From an uncultured Candidatus Saccharibacteria bacterium (GTDB lineage Bacteria; Patescibacteriota; Doudnabacteria; UBA920), in NCBI GenBank assembly GCA_964592725.1, contig CAZQFQ010000002.1, forward strand, positions 1 through 49,130: 49,130 nucleotides of DNA. The letters are read 5' to 3'. Under the pieces are notes generated by a model, which was not told the origin of the DNA, did not search any database, and saw only the letters and a list, made by a program, of their open reading frames with translations. The translations under genes were made by a program, and so were the position numbers. Positions within the stretch are counted from its first letter, which is position 1. Every line of letters begins with the position of its first letter. This document shows positions 820-47,469 of the stretch, one piece after another.

Positions 820-1977
820 ATGCAAAACATACCTTTTCATCTACCCCATATCCTCACAGCCTCTGGCTTTATTTCCTATTGCTCAGATCACGGGGCTATT
901 ATTCATTCTGAGGACTTAGAAGCTTTTCACAAGCAGGGCCTTTTAGTGCCAGTCTTACAGCTTTCAGTCGGAGTAAATAAGTACAGAAAAATTTTAGTTA
1001 ACGTTAAGCATGGGAGCGAAGATAAAAAAGAAGCTTGGCGAAAAGAATGGCAATATATCGCAGCCCAAGACCTTAAAAAATTTAAGTATGAAAAATTTGA
1101 TAAAGCAACTTATTATCATATAAGCAGTCTTGACCGTACCGATCCTAATTGGCTGGATTGGTATAAAAAGCGCAACATGGTTAAATATCCGGCGAAGGAA
1201 AAATTCAAACCCTGGCCCCAGGAACCATTTATTGGCTTTACCACAAAGCCAGACAAAATTAATGACACTATCTTTTTTTACGAAAAGTACCAATTTTTAC
1301 TGCTTAAGGAAATATTCCGACTTCGCGAGGCTTGCGATATCCCAGATAGCAAATACGCTAAACAGCAAGTTAAAAAGATTCTAAAAAACCAGGTCAAGCA
1401 ATTTTATAATTTCATCGGCTTTTATATTGAAGCAGAAAACTACCACCAAAAACTAATTTCGGTAATTTGCAAAGAGCAGCAAGATTTTTTTGCCGACTAT
1501 GGGGAAGTTAACAGAGCGGCAAAAAAGGATTGGCAGCGCCATTTTGATGGGAAATTTCGAGAAATGCTCAAAAGCCAAGTAGAAAATATTTTAAGGAAAT
1601 ACAATATAACCCTTGATGATATAGAGTATTGGCAGTATTGGCTGGCCGGCAAAACCTTGCTTGGCAATCCTGCTTACGCCTCCGCAGTACAGCGGCGCTA
1701 TACCTCAGGATTGGAGGAAAAAATCTTGGTAAAAGCCGAAGAGGCTAACCGCATGATTTTTATATTGAACCAGATTATCTATTTGTTAACTGGAGAAAAG
1801 CATACGGTCAATCAAGTTTTAGGAGACTGGCAAGGAAGTCGCTGCATTATTTGCCACAAATTTTTTGAGCCGACAAAAAAACTGCAATATACTTGCGGCC
1901 AGCCTGATTGCACCCGGAAGCACGAGAATATGATTAAACGCCAAAACCGCAAAACGGGCAAATACAAACCCCGCTGA
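820..1977 (+). CDS. hypothetical protein with C-terminal Cys-rich zinc-ribbon-like tail
   Basis: 385-aa ORF with no recognised family. C-terminus is CIICHKFF...YTCGQPDC plus a basic tail. A hairpin terminator follows. Confidence 0.65.
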   Translation: MQNIPFHLPHILTASGFISYCSDHGAIIHSEDLEAFHKQGLLVPVLQLSVGVNKYRKILVNVKHGSEDKKEAWRKEWQYIAAQDLKKFKYEKFDKATYYHISSLDRTDPNWLDWYKKRNMVKYPAKEKFKPWPQEPFIGFTTKPDKINDTIFFYEKYQFLLLKEIFRLREACDIPDSKYAKQQVKKILKNQVKQFYNFIGFYIEAENYHQKLISVICKEQQDFFADYGEVNRAAKKDWQRHFDGKFREMLKSQVENILRKYNITLDDIEYWQYWLAGKTLLGNPAYASAVQRRYTSGLEEKILVKAEEANRMIFILNQIIYLLTGEKHTVNQVLGDWQGSRCIICHKFFEPTKKLQYTCGQPDCTRKHENMIKRQNRKTGKYKPR

Positions 1978-2026
1978 CAATCCACAGCGGAATAGATGCG
2001 GAATACAAAACCTCCTTGTTTGAAAT

Positions 2027-2056
2027 AGGCTACGCTTATGGTGTAGCTTATTTTTT
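2027..2056 (+). terminator. intrinsic terminator after the 385-aa gene
   Basis: AGGCTAC-9 nt-GTAGCTT stem (one G.U) followed by a T6 run. Confidence 0.55.
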
Positions 2057-2079
2057 AATATATTAACCAAACAAAAAAT

Positions 2080-3378
2080 ATGCAAAAGAAAAACTTTGTC
2101 AAGACCCAGGAACTTAAAATTGTCATGGTCCCAACAGGCGAACTTAAGCCAGCCGACTACAATCCCAGAAGCTGGGACGCATCCGCCATTGAACAACTCA
2201 CACAGAGCATCAAGACCTTTGGTTTGATTGACCCAATTATTTGCAATGGAGCGCCAAACAGAAAAAACGTGGTTATCGGAGGCCACTTCCGTCTTTTCAT
2301 AGCCGGCAAATTGGGCATGACAACTGTACCTGTTTTATATTTGAACCTGCCCAGCCTTGAAAAGGAAAAAGAGCTAAATTTGAGATTAAACCGTAATTTA
2401 GGGAGCTGGGACTTCGAAAAATTAATGCAGGAATTTGATGTTGAGAGTTTACTGGATATCGGCTTTGACGGGCAGGATCTGTCGGCGGCCTGGGACAGTA
2501 TGCTCCAGACCGAGGACGATAATTTTAATGCCGAGGAAGAAATCAAAAAAATTAAGCAACCCAAAACCAAGCCAGGCCAAATGTTTGCCTTGGGCGATTC
2601 GTTTCTACTCTGCGGGGATGCCACAAACGGCAATGACGTCAAAAGATTGGTCGGCAAAAACACAATTGATTTAATCCTCAATGACCCACCTTTTAATTTG
2701 GCTTTAAGCTACGAGAAAGGGTTGGGCGGCCACAAAGATTATGGCGGCACCTTAACCGATGATTCCAAAAGCGAGGAAGATTACAAAAATTTTTTAAAAG
2801 CCTCCTTGAAAAATGCCCTAGCAGTAGCAAAACCAGATTGCCATTGCTTCTACTATATTGATCAAAACAGCATAGGTCTGATGCAGCAGATCTACAAAGA
2901 ATGCGGCCTTATACCAAAAAGGGTTTGCCTGTGGATAAAAGGACCACATAACCCTACGCCCTTGGTCGGTTTTAATAAGTCATATGAGCCTGCCGTGTAC
3001 GGAACGAGAGGACGCCCATATTTATCGCCCACACTTCTTAATCTCAATGAAATCATGAACCGGGAAGTGTCCAGCGGCAACCGGGCCATTGACGACTTGA
3101 TGGACTTGCTGGATTTGTGGCTGGTTCGTAGGCTGCCAGGCAATGAATATATCCATCCGGCAGAAAAACCAGCCAGCCTGCATGACCGGGCTATAAGAAG
3201 ATGCACTAAAGTCGGTGACAATATACTCGACACCTTTGCCGGTAGCGCGTCAACCATGGCTTCGGCACTCCAATTGAAACGAAGAATCTTTTTACTTGAG
3301 CATCAGCCTATTTTTTGCGATTTAATATTAATGAGATATGAGAGGCTCACCAATGAAAAACCTAAACTTATCAGTTAA
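2080..3378 (+). CDS. ParB-like nuclease domain fused to a beta-class N6-adenine/N4-cytosine DNA methyltransferase
   Basis: N-terminus ELKPADYNPRSW...IGGHFRLFIAGKLG is ParB-N-like. Motif IV (LILNDPPFNL) precedes motif I (DTFAGSASTMASA). Confidence 0.85.
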   Translation: MQKKNFVKTQELKIVMVPTGELKPADYNPRSWDASAIEQLTQSIKTFGLIDPIICNGAPNRKNVVIGGHFRLFIAGKLGMTTVPVLYLNLPSLEKEKELNLRLNRNLGSWDFEKLMQEFDVESLLDIGFDGQDLSAAWDSMLQTEDDNFNAEEEIKKIKQPKTKPGQMFALGDSFLLCGDATNGNDVKRLVGKNTIDLILNDPPFNLALSYEKGLGGHKDYGGTLTDDSKSEEDYKNFLKASLKNALAVAKPDCHCFYYIDQNSIGLMQQIYKECGLIPKRVCLWIKGPHNPTPLVGFNKSYEPAVYGTRGRPYLSPTLLNLNEIMNREVSSGNRAIDDLMDLLDLWLVRRLPGNEYIHPAEKPASLHDRAIRRCTKVGDNILDTFAGSASTMASALQLKRRIFLLEHQPIFCDLILMRYERLTNEKPKLIS

Positions 3379-4117
3379 GTTGCACGATCTGTTCCAGGTC
3401 GGCAGCCACCGTGTTATCTGCGACGATGCCCGCGACCCTAAAGCGGTCAAACGCTTGGTCGGCGGCGATAAAATAACCTCGGTAGTCTGTGATCCGCCGT
3501 TCGGGGTAGACGTAAATGCCAGTAAGGCCGGCTTTAAACAAAAATTGTCCATGCCCAAGGATATTTTAAATGATCATTTACAGTCGGACGCGGAGTACCA
3601 AGAGTTCAGTAAAAAATGGCTAGAGGCCGTTATTCCGCATTTGGCCAGGAAAAACTCCATGTATGTATTTAACGCAGATCGGATGGTTTTCGCGCTTCGA
3701 CAGGCCATGATGGAAACGGGCTGTAAAGTTTCGCAAATGCTCATCTGGATAAAATCCCAAGCCGTGGTCGGTCGGCTGGATTATAACCCTCGCCACGAGT
3801 TAATTTTATACGCTTGGTATGGCATCCACCAGTTTTTAAAGAGTAAAGATCAAAGTACCTTGTTTTTTCCGAAACCCTCGAAATCCAAATTACACCCAAC
3901 AATGAAACCGATTCCGCTTATCCGCCATCTGATTTTAAACAGCAGTAAGGTTAACGACGTGATATTTGATAACTTCCTGGGATCAGGGACCGCGCTAATG
4001 GCGGCGGAGCAGACTAAGCGCCGGTGTATGGCTATGGAACTTGACCCTGAGTATTGTAAAACCGCGCTCCAAAGATTTTATAATATCTTTGGCGTTATGC
4101 CTCAAAAAATTAATTAA
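3338..4117 (+). CDS. DNA methyltransferase (beta-class N6A/N4C), second copy
   Basis: Motif IV VVCDPPFGVD and motif I DNFLGSGTALMAAE. Overlaps the upstream methyltransferase by 41 nt, or 26 nt if ATG 3353 is the start. Confidence 0.85.
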   Translation: MRGSPMKNLNLSVKLHDLFQVGSHRVICDDARDPKAVKRLVGGDKITSVVCDPPFGVDVNASKAGFKQKLSMPKDILNDHLQSDAEYQEFSKKWLEAVIPHLARKNSMYVFNADRMVFALRQAMMETGCKVSQMLIWIKSQAVVGRLDYNPRHELILYAWYGIHQFLKSKDQSTLFFPKPSKSKLHPTMKPIPLIRHLILNSSKVNDVIFDNFLGSGTALMAAEQTKRRCMAMELDPEYCKTALQRFYNIFGVMPQKIN

Positions 4118-4130
4118 ACTCCAAACCCAT

Positions 4131-4637
4131 ATGACAAAGGGTAACATCCTGACTGATTCTGACATTCCACCGGCTCTGCCGGAATCGGAATCCAGTCAAA
4201 CTGCCGTTGATATTCGCCAGCAGCAGCAAAAGCAAATGATTATAGACCAGCTACGAAAAATCCCCGTAGTCCAGCTTATGGTAGAAAAAACTGGCATTGG
4301 CCGCACCAGCTACTACCGCTGGCGCAAAGAAGATAAAGAGTTTGCTAAAGCTTGCGATGAAGCCATGGAGCAGGGCTGCACCCTAGTCAATGATTTGGCC
4401 GAGTCCCAGCTCATTTCCGCCATCAAAGATAAAGATTTTCCGGCCATCCGCTTTTGGCTGGTAAACCACCACCCGGCCTATGCCACCAAAGTTCAAATTA
4501 ACGCCAACATTAACAATATCCAAGAACAATTAACCCCCGAACAACAACAAGTTGTCGACGAAGCCTTGCGTTTGCTTTCACTCAGTGAAAGCAACGAAGA
4601 GCCTAAAGGAGAAAATAAAAATGAAACTCACACCTAA
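4131..4637 (+). CDS. putative terminase small subunit / HTH DNA-binding protein
   Basis: The track start 4041 lies inside the methyltransferase gene, and ATG 4131 follows that gene's stop. HTH-like GIGRTSYYRWRKEDKEFAKACDEA. Sits directly upstream of TerL and overlaps it by 17 nt. Confidence 0.5.
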   Translation: MTKGNILTDSDIPPALPESESSQTAVDIRQQQQKQMIIDQLRKIPVVQLMVEKTGIGRTSYYRWRKEDKEFAKACDEAMEQGCTLVNDLAESQLISAIKDKDFPAIRFWLVNHHPAYATKVQINANINNIQEQLTPEQQQVVDEALRLLSLSESNEEPKGENKNETHT

Positions 4638-6195
4638 AATCATAAAACGGATGCATGAAGATCCCGTCATCCGCCGTGCTGTAACCAAGCGCAGCCCCGA
4701 AGCCTTTTTCGGCTTTTATTTGCCTCACTACATGGAGTTCCAGAGCGCACCCTTCCACCAACAGTTATTTAAAATGATTGAGGACGATAGTATAAAGCTC
4801 ATGGTAGTCCAGGGCTTCCGCAACAGCGGTAAGTCCACGATCCTGTCCCAGTGTTTCCCGCTTTGGTCGGCTGTTAGCGGCCGGGCCCAGGAAATCCTGG
4901 TTTTTAGCAAAAACCAGATGTTGTCCCGCCATATCTTAAGGAACATCGGCGACGAGCTCCAGGAAAATGAACTGTTGGTTAATGACTTCCGACCCTTTGA
5001 CTATGAGCGGGACCAATTTGGAGCTTATGCCATTATGTTGCAGCGTTACCATGCAGAAATTTTAGCCGTTAGTCGCGACCAGGCCATCCGCGGTGTCAAG
5101 CGCCGGCAGCATCGGCCCCAGCTTATCATAATCGACGATGTGGACGACACTTCGTCCGTGGCCACCCAGGACAGCCGGGATGCCACCTGGAGCTGGTTTA
5201 CCAGAGACATTGCCCAGCTAGGCAACAGAAACACCCGAATTGTAGTTATTGGTTCGCCCCTGCACGAGGATTCCTTAATTATGCGGCTGGACCGGAAAAT
5301 CAAGGCTGGCGAAATGAAAGGCGTGTCTATTCGTATTCCAATAGTGGACGAGGAAAACAAACCCCTGTGGCCGGCCAAGTTTCCCACGCCGCAGCTTATT
5401 GAAGATGAACGCATGAAGATGGACGAAGTCTCTTGGGCCAGGGAAATGATGTTAAAAATTGTGCCTGAACACGGCCAGTTGATTACCTATGACGATATTG
5501 TTTATTACGACACACAACCGTCCTACAACGGCGAAGAGTATTGCGGCAGCGTCTTGTCCGTGGACTTGGCTTTTAAGGTAAAAGAGTCTTCGGATTACAC
5601 GGCCATGGTCACTGGCGATATTTTTGGCTATGCCGCTGACCGGGTGATTTACATCCAGCCTAACCCATTAAACAAAAGAATGCCGCCTAACGAATCCTTT
5701 GCCGAAGCCAAGGCCAGGGCCACTGATGGCGTGGGCCAACAAAAAAAGATTATTACCGAAGATGTCGGCGGCTTGTACATTTTTATCGACCAACTCAAGC
5801 AAGCCGGGCTACCCGTGGAAGCTTTCCAGATTAAGGGGCAGGACAAGCGCGAGAGGTATTCCTTAATTGTTAACTGGATTAAAACTGGGCGGGTTAGGTT
5901 TCCTAGAAAAGGCTGCGAGCGGCTTATAGAACAAATGGTGGGCTTTGAAATCGAGCGATTTGATGACTTATTGGATGCCGTAGTACAAATGGTCTTGTAC
6001 GTTATGCAAAACAATACTCCTAAACAGGGCGGGTTTGCCTTTATAGATTTAGGACCCACGCCGGATACCGGCGGCCTGTTGCCGCCCGACTATAGTTATA
6101 CCCCTTTAATTGGACGCCGCTCATACGGACGATCCTCAAACTCTGATTTAAACAACCTTTTAAGCGGCGCAGCAAGCAAGTTTCTTAATAGGTAG
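4621..6195 (+). CDS. phage terminase large subunit
   Basis: Start moved to ATG 4621, with AAAGGAG 9 nt upstream. Walker A-like GFRNSGKST and Walker B LIIIDDVDD. The C-terminal half is nuclease-like (SVDLAF...SDYTAMV). Confidence 0.8.
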   Translation: MKLTPKIIKRMHEDPVIRRAVTKRSPEAFFGFYLPHYMEFQSAPFHQQLFKMIEDDSIKLMVVQGFRNSGKSTILSQCFPLWSAVSGRAQEILVFSKNQMLSRHILRNIGDELQENELLVNDFRPFDYERDQFGAYAIMLQRYHAEILAVSRDQAIRGVKRRQHRPQLIIIDDVDDTSSVATQDSRDATWSWFTRDIAQLGNRNTRIVVIGSPLHEDSLIMRLDRKIKAGEMKGVSIRIPIVDEENKPLWPAKFPTPQLIEDERMKMDEVSWAREMMLKIVPEHGQLITYDDIVYYDTQPSYNGEEYCGSVLSVDLAFKVKESSDYTAMVTGDIFGYAADRVIYIQPNPLNKRMPPNESFAEAKARATDGVGQQKKIITEDVGGLYIFIDQLKQAGLPVEAFQIKGQDKRERYSLIVNWIKTGRVRFPRKGCERLIEQMVGFEIERFDDLLDAVVQMVLYVMQNNTPKQGGFAFIDLGPTPDTGGLLPPDYSYTPLIGRRSYGRSSNSDLNNLLSGAASKFLNR

Positions 6196-12639: not shown

Positions 12640-12672
12640 CCACTCCCTAACCCTCCCCTCAGAAGGGGAGGG
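12640..12672. repeat. intergenic copy, inverted, of the GGGAGAGGG-type palindromic element
   Basis: Reverse complement reads CCCTCCCCT-TCTG-AGGGGAGGG-TTAGGGAGTGG. This is the same architecture as the copies inside rsmH, rnhA, recJ and eno. Confidence 0.65.
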
Positions 12673-12688
12673 AAAACTGCACTGATAT

Positions 12689-14425
12689 TTATTTTCCCGC
12701 CGGCCGTGTCGGCGGGATTTGCATATAGTTTAAAAGAAACTGGGCGAGCTGGCCCCAAACCGGAGCCGCGGTGCTTTCCGCGAAAGCCACGTCGCGCGGA
12801 TGGTCAATCCTAATAAGCATCACAAACCGCGGATTGTCCACCGGCGCGTAGCCGATAAACGACCCAATGTTGTCGTTGGCAATATATTTGCCGTCCGGAC
12901 CCGCGACCTGCGCCGTGCCGGTCTTGCCGGCGACATAATATCCGGACACGCCGGCTTTTTTTCCTTCACCGTTTTCCACATCATCCACCAGCATACCGGA
13001 AACCGTACCGGCCGCGGCGGGAGAAACAACCTGCCCTAAAGCCGTGGGCTGGGTATTTTTTACTGTACCATCCGGGTAAATTTCAGACTGCACAAGGTAT
13101 GGCTTCATCATTTTTCCGCCGTTGGCCAGGGCCGAATAAGCCTCCAGCATTTGAATCGGGGTCACGGTAATCCCCTGCCCGAAACTCGCGGTATCGTAAT
13201 TCACCTGGATATTGCTGTTAAGGCCGCTTAAATTCCCCACCGCTTCCGGCAACTCAATTCCGGTGGCCTGGCCAAAGCCAAAAGCTTTAACATATTTTAA
13301 AAACTCCTGATTGCCGAGCTGGTTCTCCGCGTAAATAGCCCCTGTGTTCAGGGAAAAATCTATAACCTGGGTCATGCTCTGGACGCCGCGCGCGCCGGGC
13401 AGGGCGTTTTTGATGGTAAAATTATCAACCTTAACCTGTCCCGTATCCGTGTAGGTGGAAGTCGCCGAAACCTTGCCCTGGTCTATGGCCGCGGCCATAG
13501 TGATAGCCTTAAAAGTGGAGCCGGGTTCGTAGTTGCCGGTTACCGCCTCGCTGTTAAAAAGATTCGGGTCCGTGACTTTGCCGTAATTGTTGGGGTCAAA
13601 ATCGGGATAATTGGCAATGGCCAAAATCGCGCCGGTTTTAGGGTCGGCCACAATTACACTGCCGCCGTCCGCGCCGTTTTTGGTTACAGCGTCCTGTAAA
13701 ACGCTTTGGGCTTGGAACTGAACGGTCTTGTCAACGGTCAAAATTAAATTCACGCCGTCTTGGGCCGGCTTCTCGTTCATGGTCGCGCCAAAAATTTGCG
13801 CGCCCGAAGGATCCTGCTCGGCCACCAGCTGGCCGGGAGTACCGCTAAGCTCCGTGTTAAAATATCTTTCCAGGCCGTAAAGGCCGGCCTTTTGACCCGC
13901 GTAGTTGTAGCCGACAAAACCCAAAGTCTGGCTTAACAAATTATTTAGCGGATAGACCCGGGTGTCTTCGGAATCAAAATAAATTCCGGGCAATGCCAGC
14001 TGTTTGATTTTTTGCTGTTCCTGGTCCGTTAACTGTTTTTTTAACGGGACATATTTTTTGCCGCTTTCGTTAATTTTTGACAGCACATCTTTTGGATCCA
14101 TATTCAAAACGGAAGCGAGGCTGTCCGCGGTTAAATTCGGATTTAAAATATCGCCCGGCACCGCGTAAACCAAATAACTTTTAGCATTGGTAGCCACCGG
14201 AATGGTGCTGTTGGAAAATTGATCAACCAGCTCAATTTGCCCGCGGCTGGGATATAATTCCTGATAGATGCTGTGCTGCTGGTCGGCTTCCTGCCGCGCC
14301 CGGGCGCCGTTAATTACCTCCAAATAAAAAAGCCGGTAAACAACCGCGGCAAAAAACAGCAATAAAAAAGCAGTCAAAAGGCCGCTTCTGGAGTTAAAGG
14401 AACTTTGGGCTGTTTTACGGACCAT
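12689..14425 (-). CDS. ftsI: penicillin-binding protein 2 / FtsI-type transpeptidase
   Basis: N-terminal TM helix. Motifs PGSTFK, SLN and KTGTA. Occupies the last dcw position after mraZ, rsmH and the ftsL-like gene. Confidence 0.88.
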   Translation of the reverse strand: MVRKTAQSSFNSRSGLLTAFLLLFFAAVVYRLFYLEVINGARARQEADQQHSIYQELYPSRGQIELVDQFSNSTIPVATNAKSYLVYAVPGDILNPNLTADSLASVLNMDPKDVLSKINESGKKYVPLKKQLTDQEQQKIKQLALPGIYFDSEDTRVYPLNNLLSQTLGFVGYNYAGQKAGLYGLERYFNTELSGTPGQLVAEQDPSGAQIFGATMNEKPAQDGVNLILTVDKTVQFQAQSVLQDAVTKNGADGGSVIVADPKTGAILAIANYPDFDPNNYGKVTDPNLFNSEAVTGNYEPGSTFKAITMAAAIDQGKVSATSTYTDTGQVKVDNFTIKNALPGARGVQSMTQVIDFSLNTGAIYAENQLGNQEFLKYVKAFGFGQATGIELPEAVGNLSGLNSNIQVNYDTASFGQGITVTPIQMLEAYSALANGGKMMKPYLVQSEIYPDGTVKNTQPTALGQVVSPAAAGTVSGMLVDDVENGEGKKAGVSGYYVAGKTGTAQVAGPDGKYIANDNIGSFIGYAPVDNPRFVMLIRIDHPRDVAFAESTAAPVWGQLAQFLLNYMQIPPTRPAGK

Positions 14426-15182: not shown

Positions 15183-15283
15183 AAATCGAATCAGCGAATT
15201 AGACGAATCTGCGAATGGCTGCGAATCAACGGATCTCAAATTCGTTGTCATTCGCAGATTCGTTCCATTCGTATATTCGATTT
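15183..15283. repeat. A-family ~100-nt palindromic element, copy A1
   Basis: AAATCGAAT...ATTCGATTT termini built from CGAAT/ATTCG words. Ends 1 nt before the rsmH stop codon. Confidence 0.85.
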
Positions 15284-15284
15284 A

Positions 15285-16226
15285 TTAAAATTTAATTATC
15301 GCCCTTAACTTTGCCGGCTTGCTTTTTGGGTTATGCGCTAATTCGTGCGAATTAGCCGTTACCGGTTTTTTTGTCAAAATTTTGCCTTTTGGATTTCGGC
15401 CGCACAAGCATTGGGGAAATTCCGGCGGACAAATACAGCCTTTGGTTAGTCCGACAAAAAACTGTTTGACGATTCTGTCTTCCAGAGAATGAAAGCTGAC
15501 GACAACCAGCCGTCCGCCGGGAACTAATAAATCAAAGGCTTTTGGCAAAAATTCGGAAAGATTTTCCAACTCATGATTCACTTCTATTCTTAATGCCTGG
15601 AATATTCTTCTGGCGCTGTCATCAGCTTTGTGCTTAACCGGCTTGGGCAGAGCTTCGACAATTATCTGATAAAGCTGATATGTGTGTTTTATTTCTATTT
15701 TATTTCCCCTATTTCTCAATATCCTTCTCGCAATTTGCTTAGAAAATTTCTCCTCGCCGTAATCTTCAAAAATTTTTACCAATCTCTTTTCGTCGTAATT
15801 ATTTAAAATAAACTTCGCGTCCAATTGTTGTGACAAGTCAAACCTCATATCCAGAGGCTGGTTGGTCTGAAAGCTTATTCCGCGGTGTTCCAATTCATAG
15901 GATGACAATCCCAAGTCCGCGACAATTCCATCCGGCGCCGGAAAATTATGATGTTTGATGATTTTATCAACGTGCGCAAAATTTCCCTGTTCAGTTATCA
16001 CCCTCTCCCTCTTGGAGAGGGTCAGGGTGAGGGTCTTAAAATTCTCAACCGCATCCTTATCCAAATCAATCGCCAACAATTTCCCGGTTTCACCAATTTC
16101 TTTTAATACCGCTGATGTATAACCACCTCCACCCAGCGTGGCGTCTACGATATTTTGACCCGGCTTAGGATCCAGGTATTCAAGAACTTCGTTCAGTAAT
16201 ACCGGAGTATGTTCATAATTTTGCAT
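15285..16226 (-). CDS. rsmH: 16S rRNA (cytosine1402-N4)-methyltransferase RsmH
   Basis: HTPVLLNEVLEYL, DATLGGGGYT, DLGLSSYELE and SFHSLEDRIVK. Confidence 0.9.
   Translation of the reverse strand: MQNYEHTPVLLNEVLEYLDPKPGQNIVDATLGGGGYTSAVLKEIGETGKLLAIDLDKDAVENFKTLTLTLSKRERVITEQGNFAHVDKIIKHHNFPAPDGIVADLGLSSYELEHRGISFQTNQPLDMRFDLSQQLDAKFILNNYDEKRLVKIFEDYGEEKFSKQIARRILRNRGNKIEIKHTYQLYQIIVEALPKPVKHKADDSARRIFQALRIEVNHELENLSEFLPKAFDLLVPGGRLVVVSFHSLEDRIVKQFFVGLTKGCICPPEFPQCLCGRNPKGKILTKKPVTANSHELAHNPKSKPAKLRAIIKF
15999..16035 (-). repeat. in-frame GGGAGAGGG-type palindromic element inside rsmH
   Basis: CACCCTCTCC-CTCTT-GGAGAGGG-TCAGGGTGAGGGTC, translated as ...KTLTLTLSKRERVITE... Confidence 0.75.
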
Positions 16227-28107: not shown

Positions 28108-28974
28108 TTACTGTTGATTATAATTTATGGAAGCCATTACTACTTTTGACTCCTGGTTTAGGGAAACTATGTAGCTCGCCTTTTTGTCGGGCAAACTTTT
28201 GTGGAAAGTTACCAGGCCTTTTACCGTAGATGTCGCGGCGCTGTCCGGAGCCTGGCCCAGGGCGCTTGTAAGATATTTTGTGACCGCGGCCAAAGACATT
28301 GCTGAACTGTAGTTAGCCGTGGTGGTTTGGGTACTCCCCTGCTGTGGCGGAAAACTAAAGGCCGAGGCAAAAGACAATTTTTGGGGGTCAAACTGCACTC
28401 CTAACTCGGCTTCAAAATCTTTTTGGGCCACGGGAGTAAGAATTATCCGCGTAACTCCCGGACCCGGAAGCTCGGATTCGTATTTTTTTGCGGGAGCGGA
28501 ATTCGGGTCCAAAGCCAAAACCTTGTCAAAGCTCGCTTTGGCCTGGGTGAACTGGTTAAGCTGGAATTCGGCTATGCCCTTAAACAGCCAGACATCCGAA
28601 ACGTTGGGAAATGTCTGTGACATTTGAGTGGCCTGGGTCAGTGCGCCGGCATAATCTTTTTTATCCATTAACAGCTGTTGCAACTGCAGGCGGTCGGCGG
28701 CGGTAAACTGCGGCGGTAATGGTATGGGCTTTACGGGTCCGGGAGCCGAAGACCGATAAAAGAAAAATCCGGCAACCGCGACTATAACTATTACCACTGC
28801 CGACCAAATCCAAAAACGCTTCCGCGATAATTTGGGGGAAAGCGGCGTAAGAAGTTTATGCGGAACCGGAACGGGAGGCATCGGACTCATCGGACTTACC
28901 GGAGGCGCAGGACTTACCGGAGTTACGGGAGGAACCGGATTTGGGGCAATCGGAATCGGATGATATTCTTCCAT
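28108..28974 (-). CDS. membrane-anchored TPR-repeat protein with Pro-rich N-terminus
   Basis: PIPIAPNPVPPVTPVSPAPPVSPMSPMPPVPVP, a TM helix IWSAVVIVIVAVAGFFF, and a TPR-like segment GIAEFQLNQFTQAKASFDKVLALDPNSAPA. Confidence 0.75.
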   Translation of the reverse strand: MEEYHPIPIAPNPVPPVTPVSPAPPVSPMSPMPPVPVPHKLLTPLSPKLSRKRFWIWSAVVIVIVAVAGFFFYRSSAPGPVKPIPLPPQFTAADRLQLQQLLMDKKDYAGALTQATQMSQTFPNVSDVWLFKGIAEFQLNQFTQAKASFDKVLALDPNSAPAKKYESELPGPGVTRIILTPVAQKDFEAELGVQFDPQKLSFASAFSFPPQQGSTQTTTANYSSAMSLAAVTKYLTSALGQAPDSAATSTVKGLVTFHKSLPDKKASYIVSLNQESKVVMASINYNQQ

Positions 28975-29187
28975 TTTTTTGTTTCTTGCCTAAATTTTAA
29001 ACCTAATTTATTATAGCATATTTTAAAAGACACTTAAAAGGGGCTTGCCTAATAAGTAATCCACAGGCAAATTAAAGGGAATTTCTTTAAATAATGAAAG
29101 GGCTTATGGGTTTGGTTCCCTCCCCCTTTGAGTTTTATCGAATGGGTCAAGGGAGGGGAAAAAAGCGTAAACGCGTAAGTCCTATAA

Positions 29188-30528
29188 CTATAACTCCTTT
29201 ACCCTCCCAAACCCGATGGAATCGCTAAAGGCTTTGCCGGCCGGGAGCATTTGCGCGCGGAGGATGGTAAACTCGCCGTATTTATTGTTGATTTTGTCCA
29301 GGGCTAAAAGCAGGCGTTTTTGGCGTTCCGCGTCGCCGAACAAACTTAATTGGTTTTCGTGCAGTCTCAACCCGGCTACCGTAACGCCGATGAGTTTGGT
29401 ACCCTCCGTAGGGGAGGGTTTCAAACCCTCCCCTACGCCGCCTGTCATCATCTTCTCGCATTCCAAAAATATCTCCCGTCCATCCTGCAAAAAATATCCC
29501 AGCTTAATACTCTTACCAAACCCTTCATAATTTTTATCGTGGCAATAAAAATGAATAACATTCCCCATCAGCCCTTTTTTGCGCAAACGCCGGCCGACCA
29601 TTTCGCACAATTTATACAGCACGGGCATAAAAAATTCCGGCTTGCGAAATTCCACGGGCAAAGTATACATATGCCCCATTGATTTTATCTCTTGTTCCTG
29701 ATGAACGAGCTCTTTCCAGGTTCCCTCAAGTTGCCCGATGTTATACAAATGATGCCCCATAATATTGCCAAACCGGCTGACCAAATGGCTTTTGGGATAA
29801 TCCCGCAAATCCTTGAGCGTGCGGATGCCGAGCGCGTTTAAATTTTTTTCCTGCCTCCGGCCGATGCCCGGGATGTCTATCAACCGCAATTGATCGTACA
29901 ATTGATTTTTAATCAAAATGTCGCAATTGCCATCGCCGTAGGGGCGGGTTTGAAACCCGCCCCTACAATGGCCATAAGGCAAGATCACAACAAGTCCATC
30001 CGGCTTTTTCATATCCGACCCGATTTTGGCGAGCAGTTTATTTTCCGCGATGCCGATACTGCACCTTAGCCAGTCCCCGACCTCGGTTTTAAACCGCCGC
30101 TTAATTTCTTGCGCGATGCTTACGGCTTCTTCAAAGGGGTCTACCAGCTGATATGCTGATAAGCTGATCAGCTGATCAGCTGTCCTGACATTACACGCCT
30201 TGGTCAAATCCGCGAACACCTCGTCTATGCTGTAAACTTCCACCGCTGATGTGTAGTCGGACACCACCTTGACCATCAACCGATTAAAATGCCGGTAACG
30301 CTCCGGCCGCGTGGGCGTAAGAATAATTTTCGGGTAAAGTTTTACGGCTTCCCAAACCGGCGTGCCGGTTTTAACGCCCCATTTTTTTGCCTCCACGCTG
30401 GCCGCGATTATTATGCCGCCCAAATGCTCGCACACGCCTAAGGGCTTGCCGCGCCAGGCTAAATTATCCTGCTGTTCAACAGAGGCAAAGTAGCTGTTCA
30501 TATCAAGATGCATAATAACGGTCTGCAT
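29188..30528 (-). CDS. dinB: DNA polymerase IV (Y-family)
   Basis: Start set at ATG 30528 (MQTVIMHLDMNSYFASVEQ). IDEVFADLT and SIGIAENKLLAKIGSDMKKPDGL. The track's N-terminal extension is a translation of the leader hairpin. Confidence 0.9.
   Translation of the reverse strand: MQTVIMHLDMNSYFASVEQQDNLAWRGKPLGVCEHLGGIIIAASVEAKKWGVKTGTPVWEAVKLYPKIILTPTRPERYRHFNRLMVKVVSDYTSAVEVYSIDEVFADLTKACNVRTADQLISLSAYQLVDPFEEAVSIAQEIKRRFKTEVGDWLRCSIGIAENKLLAKIGSDMKKPDGLVVILPYGHCRGGFQTRPYGDGNCDILIKNQLYDQLRLIDIPGIGRRQEKNLNALGIRTLKDLRDYPKSHLVSRFGNIMGHHLYNIGQLEGTWKELVHQEQEIKSMGHMYTLPVEFRKPEFFMPVLYKLCEMVGRRLRKKGLMGNVIHFYCHDKNYEGFGKSIKLGYFLQDGREIFLECEKMMTGGVGEGLKPSPTEGTKLIGVTVAGLRLHENQLSLFGDAERQKRLLLALDKINNKYGEFTILRAQMLPAGKAFSDSIGFGRVKEL
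29407..29437 (-). repeat. in-frame perfect palindrome CGTAGGGGAGGGTTT-C-AAACCCTCCCCTACG inside dinB
   Basis: 15-bp arms, translated as GGVGEGLKPSPTEG. Confidence 0.8.
29938..29966 (-). repeat. in-frame perfect palindrome GTAGGGGCGGGTTT-G-AAACCCGCCCCTAC inside dinB
   Basis: 14-bp arms, translated in a different frame as CRGGFQTRPYG. Differs from 29407-29437 by a compensated A/T to C/G change in the arms. Confidence 0.8.
30145..30183 (-). repeat. in-frame tandem 8-mer / palindromic tract (NAGCTGAT)x4-5 inside dinB
   Basis: CAGCTGATATGCTGATAAGCTGATCAGCTGATCAGCTG, translated as TADQLISLSAYQLV. Confidence 0.7.
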
Positions 30529-30604
30529 ATCCTTTATCCTTAATCCCTTATCCTTTACCACTGCATGCGATCAAGGATGAAAGATAAAAGATTAAGGATA
30601 ATTC
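30529..30604 (-). promoter_or_regulatory. dinB 5' UTR consisting of one hairpin that pairs AAGGAU (SD-like) words with AUCCUU words
   Basis: 12 perfect bp, then about 14 more. Four C.A mismatches on the plus strand become G.U pairs in minus-strand RNA. The hairpin ends at the start codon. Confidence 0.5.
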
Positions 30605-30605
30605 T

Positions 30606-30634
30606 ATAGTATACTTTCGTTCACCTTTTGTCAA
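30606..30634 (-). promoter_or_regulatory. dinB promoter TTGACA-17-TACTAT
   Basis: The minus strand reads TTGACAaaaggtgaacgaaagtaTACTAT. Confidence 0.65.
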
Positions 30635-30666
30635 TAATAAAAAACGGCGTCATTATTCCGCCGTTT
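30635..30666 (-). terminator. intrinsic terminator after the GNAT gene
   Basis: The minus strand reads AACGGCG-GAATAATGA-CGCCGTT followed by TTTTATTATT. Confidence 0.7.
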
Positions 30667-30680
30667 GGATAATGTCAAGG

Positions 30681-31058
30681 CTATTTTAAGATTTTCAACA
30701 GCGCGTATTTTTCGTTATTAAACATTTTAAATCCCTGATTTTCAAACAACAGCACCGAGCCGGTAATGCCCAAAACTTCGTGGATCTTTAACTTTTTTGC
30801 TTTTTTTAAGCATTCCTTAATTAACCCGCCGCCAATCCCCTGCCGCCAATAACGCTCTTCCACCACCAGGCTCCGGATTTCCGCCATCCGTTTGGAATAC
30901 ACCTGCAAAGCACAGCACGCGATAATTTCCCCGTTTTTTTCCGCCACAAAAAACTCCTTCAGCCTCGGCAGATTAGTTTGAATAAGCTGTCTTGGATATT
31001 TGGCGATTAGCGCTTTAATTTTTTTACGGTCTTTTGGAAGAGACGGTCTTATGTTCAT
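30681..31058 (-). CDS. GNAT-family N-acetyltransferase
   Basis: 125 aa. RSLVVEERYWRQGIGGGLIKECLKKAKK matches acetyl-CoA-binding motif A. Confidence 0.8.
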   Translation of the reverse strand: MNIRPSLPKDRKKIKALIAKYPRQLIQTNLPRLKEFFVAEKNGEIIACCALQVYSKRMAEIRSLVVEERYWRQGIGGGLIKECLKKAKKLKIHEVLGITGSVLLFENQGFKMFNNEKYALLKILK

Positions 31059-35064: not shown

Positions 35065-35165
35065 AAATCGAATCTGCGAATTAGACGAATCTACGAATGA
35101 CTACGAATTAACGAATTCGTACTTCGTAGGGATTCGTTGATTCGTTCCATTCGTAGATTCGATTT
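35065..35165. repeat. A-family palindromic element, copy A3
   Basis: Spans from about the predicted mreB transcription start to 4 nt before the mreB ATG. Has a central ACGAATTCGT. Confidence 0.85.
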
Positions 35166-36648: not shown

Positions 36649-37098
36649 CTATGCCGCTTCGTCTATGACCTGATTAACCAATTTGTCCGCTTCCTTATTT
36701 TGTTCCCTTGGAACGTGATGAAATGTCACGTTTTTAAATTGGTTGCGGAGTTTTAAAACTTCCGCGGCCAACAGCTTAAGCGTCGGTTCTTTTATTTTAT
36801 ATTGGCCAATCATTTGGCGCACAACAAGTTCGCTGTCCATGCGGATCTCGAGGTCAACTTTATTCCCCTCTCCCTTTGGGAGAGGGGTCAGGGGTGAGGG
36901 TTTTTTCGATAATTCCCTAGCCTTCTCCAACGCTAAAATCAGCGCCTTGTATTCGGCCACGTTATTTGTCGCCTCGCCGATGTATTGCTTATATTCGCCG
37001 ATGATTTGGTTATCATCAGCGCGAATAACCACGCCAATCCCCGCCGGCCCGGGATTTCCCCTGGCCCCGCCGTCTGTATTTATAATTAGTTTTGACAT
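36649..37098 (-). CDS. rnhA: ribonuclease HI
   Basis: INTDGGARGNPGPAGIG, NNVAEYKALILAL, MDSELVV and HVPREQNKEADKLVNQ. Confidence 0.85.
   Translation of the reverse strand: MSKLIINTDGGARGNPGPAGIGVVIRADDNQIIGEYKQYIGEATNNVAEYKALILALEKARELSKKPSPLTPLPKGEGNKVDLEIRMDSELVVRQMIGQYKIKEPTLKLLAAEVLKLRNQFKNVTFHHVPREQNKEADKLVNQVIDEAA
36865..36902 (-). repeat. in-frame GGGAGAGGG-type palindromic element inside rnhA
   Basis: CCCCTCTCCC-TTT-GGGAGAGGGG-TCAGGGGTGAGGGTT, translated as KKPSPLTPLPKGEGNKV. Confidence 0.8.
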
Positions 37099-37159: not shown

Positions 37160-39148
37160 CTAATCCGATTTTCTAACATCAATAACCCTCAATTTTACCC
37201 CTTCCCTTCCGTTCCAATTGTCCGCGATAAGTTCCGCAGCTACGTCTACAGTATCGCCGATTTTTAAACTTTTGGCAAAATCCGGGGCGTTAAACATAAT
37301 TCCGGATATTTCCTGGCCGCCTCCACCACCTACGGCGTCATCCTGAGGGAGTGCATCCGACCGGCTTGTCCGCCGAAGCTTTAGCGAAGGTGGAAGGATC
37401 CCTTTATCCGCAATCTGAGATTCTTCCCCCTCGCTCGGATGCACTCGCTCGGGGTCAGAATGACGCCGGAAAAACGATACAAACTTTATCTGCAAATGCT
37501 GATTTTGCTTGCCGACCATGCGCACCGATGATACTTGGAGGTTAGGAATCAAAAATTTGGGCGTAACATTATCCACCCCAAAAGGTTCTAGCCGAAGCAA
37601 CAATTGACAATTAACGATTGACAATTGACCGGGGGACAACTCCGCTTCCAGCTCCAAAACTTTTTGCGACTTTTCATTATTTATATTTTCCTCGGCGTAT
37701 ACCAGAAGCTTCTGGTAAAAAAGCTCAAATTGATCGGCTTGCAAACTCAATCCCGCGGCTTGCTTGTGGCCGCCGAATTTGGACAAATGTGCGGAAGAAA
37801 ATTTCAACGCCTCCAACATATTAAACTCGCCGGCTGTCCTGGCCGATCCTGTGCACAAGTTTTCCGTCCTCTCCAAAACAATGGTCGGCTTATAAAATTC
37901 CTCGGCCAGTTTTCCCGCCACCAAACCCATTATGCCTTTTGGCCAGCCCTCGCCCACCAACGCCAAAACTTTTCGCTCTTTAAGCAGTAAAACTTTTTCT
38001 TTGGCTTCGCTCAAAACCGAGGCCGTCAGTCCCTGCCGCCGCGCGTTTATAGCTTCCAGATTGCGGGCTTTTTCTTGCGCCTGATGAAGGTCTGTTTCCA
38101 TCAACAAATTCAAAGCAATCCCGGCGTGCTCCAGCCGTCCGGCGGCGTTTAAGCGAGGCGCTATAATAAAGCCAAGTGTATAAGTATCAAGCTTAACGAG
38201 GGTAACCCTCGGAGCCCGAGGGTTACCCTCGTTAATTAACCCGGCTGATTCCATCAAGGCGCGAAGGCCAATCCATTTAGTTTTAGCCAATACCTGCAAG
38301 CCATATTTTACCAATATGCGATTTTCGCCAAGCAGGCTGTGGCAGTCGGCCACGGTGCCAATAGCTACGAGATCCAGGAGCCATTTTTCCCAGCCTTTAA
38401 TTCCCTGCTGCCTGTTGCCTACTGCCTTTCCCCTGCTCAATATTCCGCAAGCCAGCTTAAAAGCCACCCCAACCCCGGTAATTTCCCGGTACGGATAGCC
38501 GTCATCAGAATTTTTAGGATTTATCAGCGCGTAAGCTTTTGGAACTTCGCCGATAATTTCGTGGTGGTCGGTGATAATTAAATCTATTTGATTTGCTTTA
38601 CAAAATTCCGCGGCGTCAACGGAATTCGTCCCGCAGTCAACGGTAATGATTATCTTTGATCCTTCATCCTTTATCTTTTGTAATGCCTCAATATTGACTC
38701 CGTATCCTTCCGAAAAACGATCCGGAATATATGACGCCACTTCAACCCCTAAATATCTAAAAGTCTGCCCCAAAACAGCGTTGGCGGTTATGGCGTCGGC
38801 ATCGTAATCACCGTAAACGCAAATTTTTTCCCGGCTGTCTATTGCCTTCCAAATCCGCTCCACCGCTTTTTCCATATCCTGAAACAAAAACGGGCTGTGC
38901 AAGTTTTCGTATTTCGGCTCCAAAAAATCCTGAATCTGCTCTTTCTCAAGCAGCCCTCTATTATAAAGCAACTGCGCCAGCAATACCTGATCCCCCTCTC
39001 CCTTTGGAAGAGGGTCAGGGTGAGGGTTTGATGATAAAAAACCGATGATCTTTCCCTTAGCCTCCTCCGGCACCCCTGGTTTTAATTTCCAAATTTTTGC
39101 CATATACTCTATTTTATCAGTTAAAGTCAATAAAGTGTAGTCTATCAA
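37160..39148 (-). CDS. recJ: single-stranded-DNA-specific exonuclease RecJ
   Basis: VYGDYDADAIT, ITVDCGT, IITDHH and GGHKQAAG (DHH/DHHA1). An alternative start is ATG 39103. Confidence 0.9.
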   Translation of the reverse strand: MIDYTLLTLTDKIEYMAKIWKLKPGVPEEAKGKIIGFLSSNPHPDPLPKGEGDQVLLAQLLYNRGLLEKEQIQDFLEPKYENLHSPFLFQDMEKAVERIWKAIDSREKICVYGDYDADAITANAVLGQTFRYLGVEVASYIPDRFSEGYGVNIEALQKIKDEGSKIIITVDCGTNSVDAAEFCKANQIDLIITDHHEIIGEVPKAYALINPKNSDDGYPYREITGVGVAFKLACGILSRGKAVGNRQQGIKGWEKWLLDLVAIGTVADCHSLLGENRILVKYGLQVLAKTKWIGLRALMESAGLINEGNPRAPRVTLVKLDTYTLGFIIAPRLNAAGRLEHAGIALNLLMETDLHQAQEKARNLEAINARRQGLTASVLSEAKEKVLLLKERKVLALVGEGWPKGIMGLVAGKLAEEFYKPTIVLERTENLCTGSARTAGEFNMLEALKFSSAHLSKFGGHKQAAGLSLQADQFELFYQKLLVYAEENINNEKSQKVLELEAELSPGQLSIVNCQLLLRLEPFGVDNVTPKFLIPNLQVSSVRMVGKQNQHLQIKFVSFFRRHSDPERVHPSEGEESQIADKGILPPSLKLRRTSRSDALPQDDAVGGGGGQEISGIMFNAPDFAKSLKIGDTVDVAAELIADNWNGREGVKLRVIDVRKSD
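37337..37464 (-). repeat. ~128-nt REP-like inverted-repeat element inside the recJ 3' region
   Basis: The arms are GTCATCCTGAGGGAGTGCATCCGA and TCGGATGCACTCGCTCGGGGTCAGAATGAC. Translated as ...RRHSDPERVHPSEGEESQIADKGILPPSLKLRRTSRSDALPQDDAV... Confidence 0.75.
38195..38233 (-). repeat. in-frame perfect 18-3-18 palindrome inside recJ
   Basis: AACGAGGGTAACCCTCGG-AGC-CCGAGGGTTACCCTCGTT, translated as NEGNPRAPRVTLV. Confidence 0.8.
38992..39028 (-). repeat. in-frame GGGAGAGGG-type palindromic element inside the recJ 5' region
   Basis: CCCCCTCTCCC-TTT-GGAAGAGGG-TCAGGGTGAGGGTT, translated as NPHPDPLPKGEGDQ. Confidence 0.8.
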
Positions 39149-40954: not shown

Positions 40955-42235
40955 TATAATTGCTTCTATCTCCAGCAACCGATTATATTTCGCCAACCGT
41001 TCCCCGCGACAAGGCGCGCCGGCTTTTATGTATTCCGCGTTCACAGCCACGGCCAGGTCGGCGATAAAATCATCTGATGTCTCCCCGCTTCTGTGCGAAA
41101 TGACGATTTTATATTTATTTTTTTGCGAAAGTCTAACGGCCGCCAAAGTTTCCGTTAGCGTGCCGATTTGGTTTAGTTTGATTAAAACCGCGTTGGCGAT
41201 TTTTTGGGTGATGCCCATTTGGATTCGTTGCGGATTGGTCACAAACAAATCGTCGCCGATGAGCAAAGTTTTATCGCCCAAATTTTGAGTTAAAAATTTC
41301 CAGCCCAACAAATCGTCCTGCGCGCAACCGTCTTCTATTGCCATAAGCGGATATTTGGCCAGCCATTTTTTGTAGACTTGATAAATGTTGGCCGACGTGG
41401 CGGACATTTTGCCGGCCTTGAATTCGTAAATGCCTTTTTTCTCGTTAAAAAACTCGCTGGATGCCGCGTCCAGTCCCAAAGCAAAATCCCTCCCTAGTTT
41501 ATATTTTGCCGATTTTATTGCGGCCTCAAGTTGTTTAAACGCGTCTTCATTGGAAGAAAGTTTTGGCGCGAACCCGCCCTCATCGCCTACCGAAGTTGCG
41601 AGCCCCTTAGCCGCGAGTTGCGATTTTAACGCGTGATACACTTCCGCGCCCATTCTTAGCTTATTGGCAAAATTTCCCCTAAGCGGAACAAGGAAAAACT
41701 CCTGCACATCCAAACCGCTGTCCGCGTGCACCCCGCCGTTTATAACATTAAAAAACGGGGTCGGTATTTTATACGCTTCCCTCCCCCTCTGGGGGAGGGT
41801 CAGGGAGAGGGTTTCATCGTCTGGCAAATACATCCCCCTCAAATACTCAAAAAGCTCCCTTTTTTGGCATTTTGCGGCCAGCCTGGCCGAAGCGAGCGAA
41901 ACCGATAAAATGGCGTTCGCGCCAAGTTTGGCCTTATTGTCCGTGCCGTCCAGCTCTATCATCATTTCGTCAATTTTTTGCTGATCCCCGCAAGATATCC
42001 CCTTAACAGCCTTAAATATCTTTTCTTCCACATTCCGGCAAGCCTTAAGCACGCCCTTACCGCCATACCGCTTTTTATCCCCATCCCGGAGCTCCAAAGC
42101 CTCATGCACCCCGGTAGAAGCCCCGCTGGGCACGCTGGCCTTAGCGCTAATATCTCCCGCCCAAACCGTGGTCTCCACCGTCGGATTTCCCCTACTATCC
42201 AACACCTCCAAAGCCCTAATTTTTGTTATCTTCAT
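40952..42235 (-). CDS. eno: enolase
   Basis: ITKIRALEVLDSRGNPTVETTVW, SVPSGASTGVHEALELRDGD and ISHRSGETSD. Confidence 0.95.
   Translation of the reverse strand: MKITKIRALEVLDSRGNPTVETTVWAGDISAKASVPSGASTGVHEALELRDGDKKRYGGKGVLKACRNVEEKIFKAVKGISCGDQQKIDEMMIELDGTDNKAKLGANAILSVSLASARLAAKCQKRELFEYLRGMYLPDDETLSLTLPQRGREAYKIPTPFFNVINGGVHADSGLDVQEFFLVPLRGNFANKLRMGAEVYHALKSQLAAKGLATSVGDEGGFAPKLSSNEDAFKQLEAAIKSAKYKLGRDFALGLDAASSEFFNEKKGIYEFKAGKMSATSANIYQVYKKWLAKYPLMAIEDGCAQDDLLGWKFLTQNLGDKTLLIGDDLFVTNPQRIQMGITQKIANAVLIKLNQIGTLTETLAAVRLSQKNKYKIVISHRSGETSDDFIADLAVAVNAEYIKAGAPCRGERLAKYNRLLEIEAII
41779..41812 (-). repeat. in-frame GGGAGAGGG-type palindromic element inside eno
   Basis: CCCTCCCCC-TCT-GGGGGAGGG-TCAGGGAGAGGGT, translated as DDETLSLTLPQRGREAY just before the conserved P.P..NViNGG segment. 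Confidence 0.8.

Positions 42236-46312: not shown

Positions 46313-47469
<1,157 letters not shown>

Follow-up and report, generated by a model that had tools for sequence, protein, structure and literature searches.

The window analyzed here is a 49,130-nt stretch of contig CAZQFQ010000002.1 from an uncultured bacterium of the Patescibacteria (Doudnabacteria), and its minus strand carries dinB, the gene for the Y-family DNA polymerase IV (29188..30528), as a 446-codon open reading frame (ORF) with an intact frame encoding 446 aa; the ORF list places the dinB start at a GTG at 30561. Three repeat-like inserts lie within this frame. Insert 1 (29407..29437) is a perfect 15+1+15 palindrome, made up of a 29-nt core (the 29-mer, 29408-29436) in its AG/CT variant and an extra complementary C/G pair outside it, and is read as VGEGLKPSPT (residues 365-374) in a loop of the little finger. 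Insert 2 (29938..29966) is a perfect 14+1+14 palindrome of the CG/CG variant, the commonest across phyla, and has the reading (C)RGGFQTRPY(G) at residues 188-198, which lie between palm and thumb. Insert 3 (30145..30183), just after the catalytic DE strand, is a degenerate (CAGCTGAT)n tract that is at once tandem and palindromic, with an 8-bp period over 4.6 copies at 89% match (30146-30182), a perfect 10+0+10 core (30162-30181), and the peptide TADQLISLSAYQLV (residues 116-129). All three are translated in the dinB frame, and the two 29-mers are read in different frames. A first-pass annotation had described these three features, and direct reading bore out their coordinates, their in-frame translations (including the different frame of insert 2), and their nature as two perfect palindromes and one tandem and palindromic tract.

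The 29-mer has the consensus GTAGGGG(C/A)GGGTTT-N-AAACCC(G/T)CCCCTAC. Inserts 1 and 2 differ at one compensated arm pair (A/T versus C/G) and at the center base (C versus G), in line with the earlier claim that they are a single element with a compensated substitution. The pattern was matched twice in the window and not once in 100 shuffles. Folding of the single-stranded DNA of inserts 1, 2, and 3 gave -17.1, -18.1, and -13.4 kcal/mol (z = -6.8, -6.2, and -4.2, respectively), and the three inserts were confirmed to lie far beyond chance. An Rfam search of 28900-30800 returned only sub-threshold chance matches, and known RNA families were rejected for the dinB region on this ground. An intron or other spliced element was also rejected, because the frame of dinB is continuous through each insert and excision of 29 nt would shift it.

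The DinB protein meets the description of a Y-family Pol IV, with palm/fingers, a helix-hairpin-helix (HhH) thumb, and a little finger; the Pfam domains IMS (3e-36), IMS_HHH_1, and IMS_C are intact, and the closest solved structures found with HMMER were bacterial and archaeal Pol IV, Dbh, and Dpo4. In alignments to the Pol IV, Dpo4, and Dbh structures, gaps fell at all three insert sites. The catalytic residues D9 and D102-E103 occupy invariant or nearly invariant alignment columns. An AlphaFold (AF2) model with an input of 118 sequences had a mean predicted local distance difference test (pLDDT) score of 87.9 and a predicted template modeling (pTM) score of 0.80, and Foldseek matched it to E. 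coli Pol IV and Dpo4 with a template modeling (TM) score of 0.86 on the target. The model places the inserts as loops, and its confidence dips there: residues 111-130 (insert 3), predicted to form a small beta-hairpin (E115-117, E126-128), had a pLDDT of 75-80, and residues 191-200 (insert 2) and 361-370 (insert 1) each had a pLDDT of 61. Further dips occurred at residues 271-280 and in the C-terminal tail. According to the model, the Pol IV fold is kept despite the inserts; because the fold is kept and the catalytic columns are invariant or nearly so, the inserts look like tolerated surface loops, and the polymerase probably stays active.

The same three positions were then compared across orthologues. 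A protein search returned thousands of DinB relatives of 413-542 aa, from Patescibacteria or Doudnabacteria where named; 41 and 120 relatives were aligned as proteins, and DNA was fetched for ~60 orthologues (below, L-numbers denote fetched DNA loci and P-numbers protein relatives). Across ~180 Patescibacteria orthologues, DinB was very highly conserved except at three hypervariable loop sites, which hold many different palindromic inserts. With anchors included, site 3 (after DEVFxDLTKxCN) ranged from 16 to 93 aa, site 2 (after KKPDGLVVI) from 19 to 89 aa, and site 1 (in the little finger) from 25 to 62 aa, with a common short length of 28. In more distant Patescibacteria orthologues (40-58% identity), site 1 spans ~12-13 residues, and the loops are short at site 3 (2-8 residues) and at site 2 (six residues, 'VRPEDK'); the short loops at sites 3 and 2 indicate that the expansions are clade specific. 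No homologous residues were found at the three sites in other clades, and close relatives carry there the same element, another palindrome, or nothing, so that the description of these segments as inserts stands.

The loop fillers resemble translated repeats of many kinds ('CHSDRPSAAEGVEESL', 'KCKVLSAKW', 'NPAFAQGYGGQGQ', 'ISNFQFPNKFQ', and 'PCAAQGxPLW'). Perfect stems of at least 8 were present in 13 of 63 loops and in 16 of 570 control windows taken from conserved regions of those dinB genes; for stems of at least 10, the counts were 9 in 63 loops versus none in the 570 controls (Fisher p = 5e-7). On a rough neighbor-joining tree of DinB with the loops masked, every insert type was scattered, indicating repeated gain, loss, or replacement.

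At site 1, the 29-mer is present in the window (AG/CT), in L121 (AC/GT), and in L123 (CG/CG), in the same frame and at positions within a couple of codons of each other; in L130, the closest relative (80% identity), this place is taken by another perfect GTAGG palindrome (15+0+15). The site 1 elements are identical at 26-27 of 29 positions between orthologues whose host genes are 66-69% identical in DNA. Two readings fit these data: the insertions may be recent and recur at a favored site, or a single old insertion may have kept its symmetry through selection or homogenization of the arms. The L130 contig also contains 18-bp GTAGG(G/C)TC..GA(C/G)CCTAC palindromes at 320, 926, and 4111, and the copy at site 1 of its dinB is nested within an outer GTAGG...CCTAC pair.

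At site 2, L124 (10600-10642) and L131 (~3672-3714) carry 43-nt perfect palindromes (21+1+21) that give a loop of the '...PCAAQGxPLW' type. The two differ at six arm positions, all of them compensated, and no copies of these 43-nt palindromes were found outside dinB. Downstream of dinB, both loci contain a different, 241-aa Y1_Tnp gene with the HUH motif 'MPNHWHMV' (L124 11408-12133, 43 bp from dinB; L131 5495-6166, ~1.1 kb from dinB); no such gene is present in the window. In L124, this gene is bounded by 17-bp inverted repeats (AAAAGGTGTCAGGAACC), with two partial copies at 13640-14035. A further inverted repeat, (TATCCTT)n/(AAGGATA)n, spans the start codon and ribosome-binding region of dinB in the window (30526-30601). 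If read from the upstream GTG, it would give KDKGLRIKD, and similar peptides are found at site 2 of L133 and L139 and at the N-terminus of P0003.

Insert 3 does not share the origin of the other two inserts, a point that the first-pass annotation missed. In 1.48 Mb of fetched loci, AGCTGATCAGCT was confined to site 3 of dinB in the window and in its nearest relatives, and no copies of insert 3 were found outside dinB among these loci. It is shared by the close orthologues P0002, P0003, P0006, P0013, P0021, P0026, and P0030; the peptide 'DQLISLSA' recurs in scattered close DinB orthologues, and many orthologues share a length class of 13 residues at site 3. Insert 3 is most likely a product of local slippage or template switching that was inherited within the clade, rather than a dispersed element. 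A perfect (CAGCTGAT)n array contains TGA in every frame on both strands; direct reading of the window showed TTA at the would-be TGA codon, and this TGA-to-TTA change would have kept the insert open.

The 29-mer, in contrast to insert 3, is a dispersed element. Scanning for GTAGGGGNNGGTTTNAAACCNNCCCCTAC in one genome per species, in the census of copies, returned at least 120 loci in more than ten phyla, including Chloroflexota, Nitrospirota, Desulfobacterota, Actinomycetota, Planctomycetota, Omnitrophota, Pseudomonadota, and Patescibacteria; the copy statistics given here refer to the 127 copies in the loci listed. Source groups among the matches listed were Dehalococcoidia, Anaerolineae, Nitrospirota, Thermodesulfobacteriota, Rubrobacter, Binatia, Brocadia, Omnitrophota, Alpha- and Betaproteobacteria, Rhodothermales, Spirochaetia, and Patescibacteria. 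The flanks are unrelated between loci and the borders are sharp; since nothing is shared in the flanks, the unit is exactly the 29-mer. The variable arm pairs were compensated in 113 of the 127 copies (CG/CG in 88, CA/TG in 14, and AG/CT in 8), and 88 copies from other phyla were identical in sequence to insert 2. Because the AG/CT and CG/CG variants are both present, independently, in other phyla, the two dinB copies appear, from this sequence comparison, more likely to be separate arrivals of a dispersed element than the outcome of a duplication followed by compensatory change.

No target-site duplication was found at the copies, where flanking direct repeats of 1-4 nt were at or near chance expectation. 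A flank bias was observed, with a pyrimidine at -1 in 101 of 126 copies and a purine at +1 in 88 of 126, and the flanks of the dinB copies (C...G and T...G) fit this bias. In L071, L022, and L102, the 29-mer lies at the center of other palindromes, and the same loci also contain 27-29-nt sister elements that share its ends (GTAGGGGC...GCCCCTAC) but not its core. Open frames of at least 250 codons contained 43 of the 127 copies, compared with 88 of 120 random controls. In-frame copies confirmed with Pfam were found in a CheA linker, an MMPL transporter, a tRNA-U5 methyltransferase domain, DUF1015, MurF, and an AMP-ligase. Coding copies use two frames only (VGAGxKPAPT and RGGFxTRPY); the third frame begins with TAG. 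In 120 of the 127 cases, the copy was the only one within the fetched locus (up to 8 kb), an arrangement other than the dimers of REPIN type, in which two inverted repetitive extragenic palindromic (REP) units with a spacer between them form the mobile unit. In the ~69 kb of this genome, there are two copies, both in dinB, which is thus the only gene there with a GTAGGGG element and has it twice.

Several candidate identities or routes for the 29-mer were tried and set aside. Paired copies ~820-840 bp apart in L042, L079, and L236 were considered as transposase borders, and this was rejected since no transposase lies between them. Phage carriage as a spreading route was not supported: 23 stretches were found in 2.9 million viral contigs, none with RayT. 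CRISPR repeats, dif/Xer sites, attC, and uptake sequences were rejected, as the copies are solitary, the arm/spacer geometry is wrong, and uptake sequences are not known to be common to different phyla.

The 29-mer is associated with RayT, a transposase of the Y1/HUH type, and this cross-phylum association had escaped the first-pass annotation. Perfect in-frame copies follow the HUH motif in the 190-aa RayT-type Y1 genes of L094 (6412-6987, minus strand) and L095 (~2070-2612, minus strand) and in the RayT gene of L129 (10001-10546). The RayT genes of L126/L128 (10001-10606) likewise hold a perfect in-frame copy, with a second perfect copy 2 nt past the stop codon, and a perfect 29-mer also lies inside the RayT-type Y1_Tnp gene of L127. 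The best 120 relatives of the L094 RayT were PF01797 members, several of them named 'REP element-mobilizing transposase RayT' by the Joint Genome Institute (JGI), and all carried VGAG[FL]KPAPT, degenerate or multiplied, between the HUH motif and the next helix. This first search was biased, because it was word based and its query held the motif. A less biased HMMER search of 1.84 billion representatives, with the one RayT member lacking a clean motif as the query, gave a huge clade (17,426 representatives at E<1e-10). In this clade, the loop after the HUH motif varies from no insert to >100 residues, often with multiplied or sister palindromes. Among 96 parsed loops, the motif was present in 17 (strict pattern) to 27 (loose pattern), and by eye many of the other loops contained translations of sister palindromes (VGATHASPL, GTACRAPT, GAIHRAPT, and xTRPY). 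Since the 29-mer lies inside the coding sequence of the RayT clade, we regard it as a GTAG-tagged REP-like element.

With tblastn, nothing convincing as a RayT or Y1 gene turned up in the window or in a further 20 kb of this genome. L126, L127, and L128 share the same RayT gene and the same right neighbors (acetyl-CoA synthetase, HicB, and Uma2) in three different left contexts, which include resolvases and DDE transposases; the three left contexts of one gene suggest rearrangement at the RayT boundary.

We consider it probable that inserts 1 and 2 represent REP-like palindromes of the RayT type that have survived in permissive DinB loops, accompanied by one local tandem palindrome (insert 3). 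By this account, the 29-mer would form a hairpin on single-stranded DNA, for example at the replication fork, and a RayT-type HUH/Y1 transposase would recognize the hairpin and the GTAG tag, cut, and rejoin the element elsewhere without target duplication, with rejoining favored between a 5' pyrimidine and a 3' purine. Copies landing in a gene would survive only if the frame is free of stops (VGAGxKPAPT or RGGFxTRPY), if the total change in length is, or becomes, a multiple of three, and if the insertion point is a surface loop that tolerates it. The three sites in dinB would be such loops, serving in this clade as repeated landing or replacement sites for many palindromes. We infer both the movement of the 29-mer by RayT and the timing of the insertions. 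Several observations weigh against this account. No RayT of the clade is present in the window or the additional 20 kb of the same genome, and two copies in ~69 kb are far below the copy numbers of classical REPs. No filled-versus-empty pair of sites was found, so that movement is deduced and not seen. As 29 nt is not a multiple of three, every in-frame copy needs extra indels, and the net gains at the site 1 loop (9 to 39 nt) do not amount to a clean insertion. The three site 1 copies in one frame fit equally well a single old insertion that was kept palindromic by other means. Moreover, described REPs have GTAG unpaired at one end, whereas the 29-mer has it within the stem on both strands, and the first set of RayT relatives came from the word-based search with a motif-bearing query.

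Some of these points would be accommodated if the palindromes had been made and kept perfect locally, by template switching with quasi-palindrome correction or by gene conversion within the hairpin, rather than transposed. The six compensated differences between the dinB-only palindromes of L124 and L131, the confinement of insert 3 and its relatives to site 3, and the three compensated 29-mer variants in one frame at site 1 agree with a local origin. Such an origin cannot explain the same sharply bounded 29-mer in unrelated contexts, in more than ten phyla and in RayT genes, nor the prior existence elsewhere of both dinB sub-variants, and we judge it unlikely. Unlikely, too, is that the hairpins are kept as regulators of dinB, with RNA or DNA structure slowing transcription or translation or providing RNase sites and with insert 3 acting as a slippage-prone frame switch. 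The same 29-mer lies in unrelated genes and in intergenic DNA, and many orthologues lack a strong hairpin at the three sites, although the hairpins are stable, their palindromy is better conserved than the host gene, and both copies in the ~69 kb sit in dinB. The inverted repeat over the start codon (30526-30601) and the clustering of published intragenic REPs in repair genes would also suit regulation, as would the presence of TGA in every frame of a perfect (CAGCTGAT)n array. However, insert 3 has only ~2.5 perfect units and is conserved at the protein level in relatives, and for these reasons active slippage is unlikely and an active frame switch with it.

That the inserts are protein loops selected for partner binding or DNA contact is very improbable in our view. 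Translation in frame, the modeled beta-hairpin of insert 3, and the recurrent 13-residue length class at site 3 are what selected loops would predict, and the match to Pol kappa splits into two stretches, the first of which ends at query residue 113; human Pol kappa carries a long, disordered insertion at this point of the palm. Against selected loops, one DNA element gives two unrelated peptides at two sites, unrelated sequences occupy each site in close orthologues, conservation is at the level of DNA symmetry, and model confidence is low at sites 1 and 2. Chimeric palindromes from library preparation or assembly deserve almost no credence. Multiple-displacement amplification can create palindromes and the data are metagenomic, but the identical protein is recorded on two contigs, both window ends were recovered in JGI and European Nucleotide Archive (ENA) assemblies, and the reading frame is kept; furthermore, orthologues from other samples have variants at the same site, and the element occurs in hundreds of independent metagenome-assembled genomes and long-read chromosomes. 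RayT-type REP-like palindromes in permissive loops, together with a local insert 3, thus remain our preferred explanation.

The dinB gene is one case of a general habit of in-frame palindromes in this genome. The window contains 19 perfect hairpins with stems of at least 9, compared with 0-3 in shuffles, and 12 of the 19 lie inside ORFs; the in-frame palindromes include those of enolase, RecJ (20+3+20), RNase H, and a methyltransferase. In the RecJ-like ORF (37160-39148, minus strand), a 43-bp perfect palindrome at 38193-38235 (20+3+20, TTAACGAGGGTAACCCTCGG...) is read in frame as INEGNPRAPRVTLVK, and a C-terminal stretch of ~50 residues ('RRHSDPERVHPSEGEESQ...DALPQDDAVGGGGGQ') resembles the dinB site 3 inserts of P0008, P0099, and P0101. 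A second hairpin family, CCCTC(C/T)CC-loop-GG(G/A)GAGGG, occurs in frame in housekeeping genes and also between genes: in enolase (41779-41799), RNase H (36865-36887), the methyltransferase ORF 15285-16226 (16000-16022), and intergenic DNA (12651-12672), as well as in L210 (4277-4297), with the in-frame readings TLPQRGRE, TPLPKGEG, and TLSKRERV. Intergenic arrays of 8-bp CGAATC-type units followed by inverted GATTCG-type units form large imperfect palindromes at 15187-15279, 35069-35161, and 47368-47456. The left end of the window (820-6195, with annotation in L212) and the right part are found on separate public contigs. The left end contains genes for ParB-N6/N4 methyltransferase and a large ORF (4552-6195), terminase-like by eye, with a stem-11 hairpin at 4572-4594; this region may be a prophage or mobile island.

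A wider proposal can be put forward only tentatively, as we hold it to be less probable than its negation: that a very large, multi-phylum RayT clade keeps its own cognate GTAGGGG...CCCCTAC palindrome in frame after the HUH motif, and that such palindromes move, or replace one another, at preferred hairpin sites, loops of repair genes such as dinB among them, and are kept perfectly symmetric by an active process and not by chance. If so, every RayT lineage would possess a GTAGGGG...CCCCTAC superfamily member of its own, the double-tagged palindromes of 27-29 bp would be the smallest autonomous-looking mobile units known, and an REP-RAYT architecture and host range not described before would be at hand, along with a route by which selfish hairpins could reshape or tune the error-prone polymerase of a reduced genome. 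Apart from this proposal, the present case shows that, of the many odd low-complexity stretches in proteins of small-genome uncultivated bacteria, some are translated selfish hairpins, a source of variation in protein length, rather than sequencing noise or adaptive domains, and knowledge of such elements aids gene calling, domain annotation, and structure prediction for metagenomic proteins. The RayT clade and its 29-nt hairpin offer a testable enzyme-substrate pair for studies of REP movement. Earlier work placed palindromes in uvr, rec, and dnaE2, and here they lie in dinB; it can also be asked whether such inserts alter mutation rates. The searched literature contained nothing relevant on GTAGGGGCGGGTTT, on related strings, or on the peptide sequences GLKPAPT and FETRPY; nothing on this subject was found where in-frame palindromic repeats are treated together with Patescibacteria, and papers on RAYTs and REPs had no mention that we found of an REP inside a RAYT reading frame. 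Nor did the searched literature describe a double-tagged cross-phylum palindrome, a copy within RayT, or turnover of perfect palindromes in dinB loops.

The element can be compared with four known systems. In heterocyst-forming cyanobacteria, Elhai et al. reportedly described in 2008, in Genome Research, hairpin-like mobile repeats of ~20-30 nt that are nested and sometimes lie in genes; these are said to be restricted to cyanobacteria, to have other sequences, and to come with no claimed link to RayT. Like MITEs (transposable elements of the miniature inverted-repeat type), the 29-mer is a short, non-autonomous inverted-repeat element able to land in genes, and formally it could consist of two 14-bp terminal repeats with nothing between them; unlike MITEs, it is far shorter and has neither a target-site duplication nor a matching DDE transposase, and it is not classed with them. 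The length of RPE-1, one of the Rickettsia palindromic elements (RPEs), is about 100-150 bp. Like RPEs, the 29-mer is palindromic selfish DNA that lies in frame in coding genes and is translated and tolerated at surface sites; unlike it, the RPEs described in that literature are rickettsial and have no known RayT link, and at 29 bp, with another sequence and a cross-phylum distribution, our element falls outside that group. RPEs are named in Di Nocera 2013 (PMC3733652) and Blanc 2007 (PMC1779305), with RPE-1 longer than an REP.

The closest system is that of GTAG-tagged REPs and their REP-associated tyrosine transposases, RAYT/TnpA(REP) (Nunvar 2010, PMC2817692; Di Nocera 2013, PMC3733652; Messing 2012, PMC3479197). 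In this literature, REPs flank RAYT genes and GTAG is recognized; intragenic REPs encode 20-30 residues, and many lie in replication/repair genes, including error-prone polymerases (Di Nocera 2013, PMC3733652), so that in-frame REPs in repair genes are already known. Like REPs, which are palindromes of 20-40 bp, the 29-mer is a short GC-rich hairpin with GTAG (29 bp, 14-bp arms, -17 to -18 kcal/mol as single-stranded DNA), has sub-families set apart by complementary stem changes, and is tied, in other phyla and not in the ~69 kb that includes the window, to Y1/HUH genes annotated as RayT (PF01797). Its intragenic copies likewise add 10-30 residues, notably in replication/repair genes including error-prone polymerases. 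Unlike REPs, which are lineage specific, often number >100 per genome, and are mostly extragenic, the 29-mer is nearly identical in more than 10 phyla and seems low in copy number here, with two copies in ~69 kb, both intragenic. Its copies are singletons rather than REPIN-like dimers, one copy can lie inside the RayT open reading frame and not only beside it, and its host here is a Patescibacteria dinB. Finally, described REPs normally carry an unpaired GTAG (or GTGG) at one end, the 5' end of the hairpin, whereas in the 29-mer GTAG is paired with CTAC at both ends; being tagged and base-paired at both ends, it is therefore a perfect 29-bp palindrome and a tagged REP on either strand.

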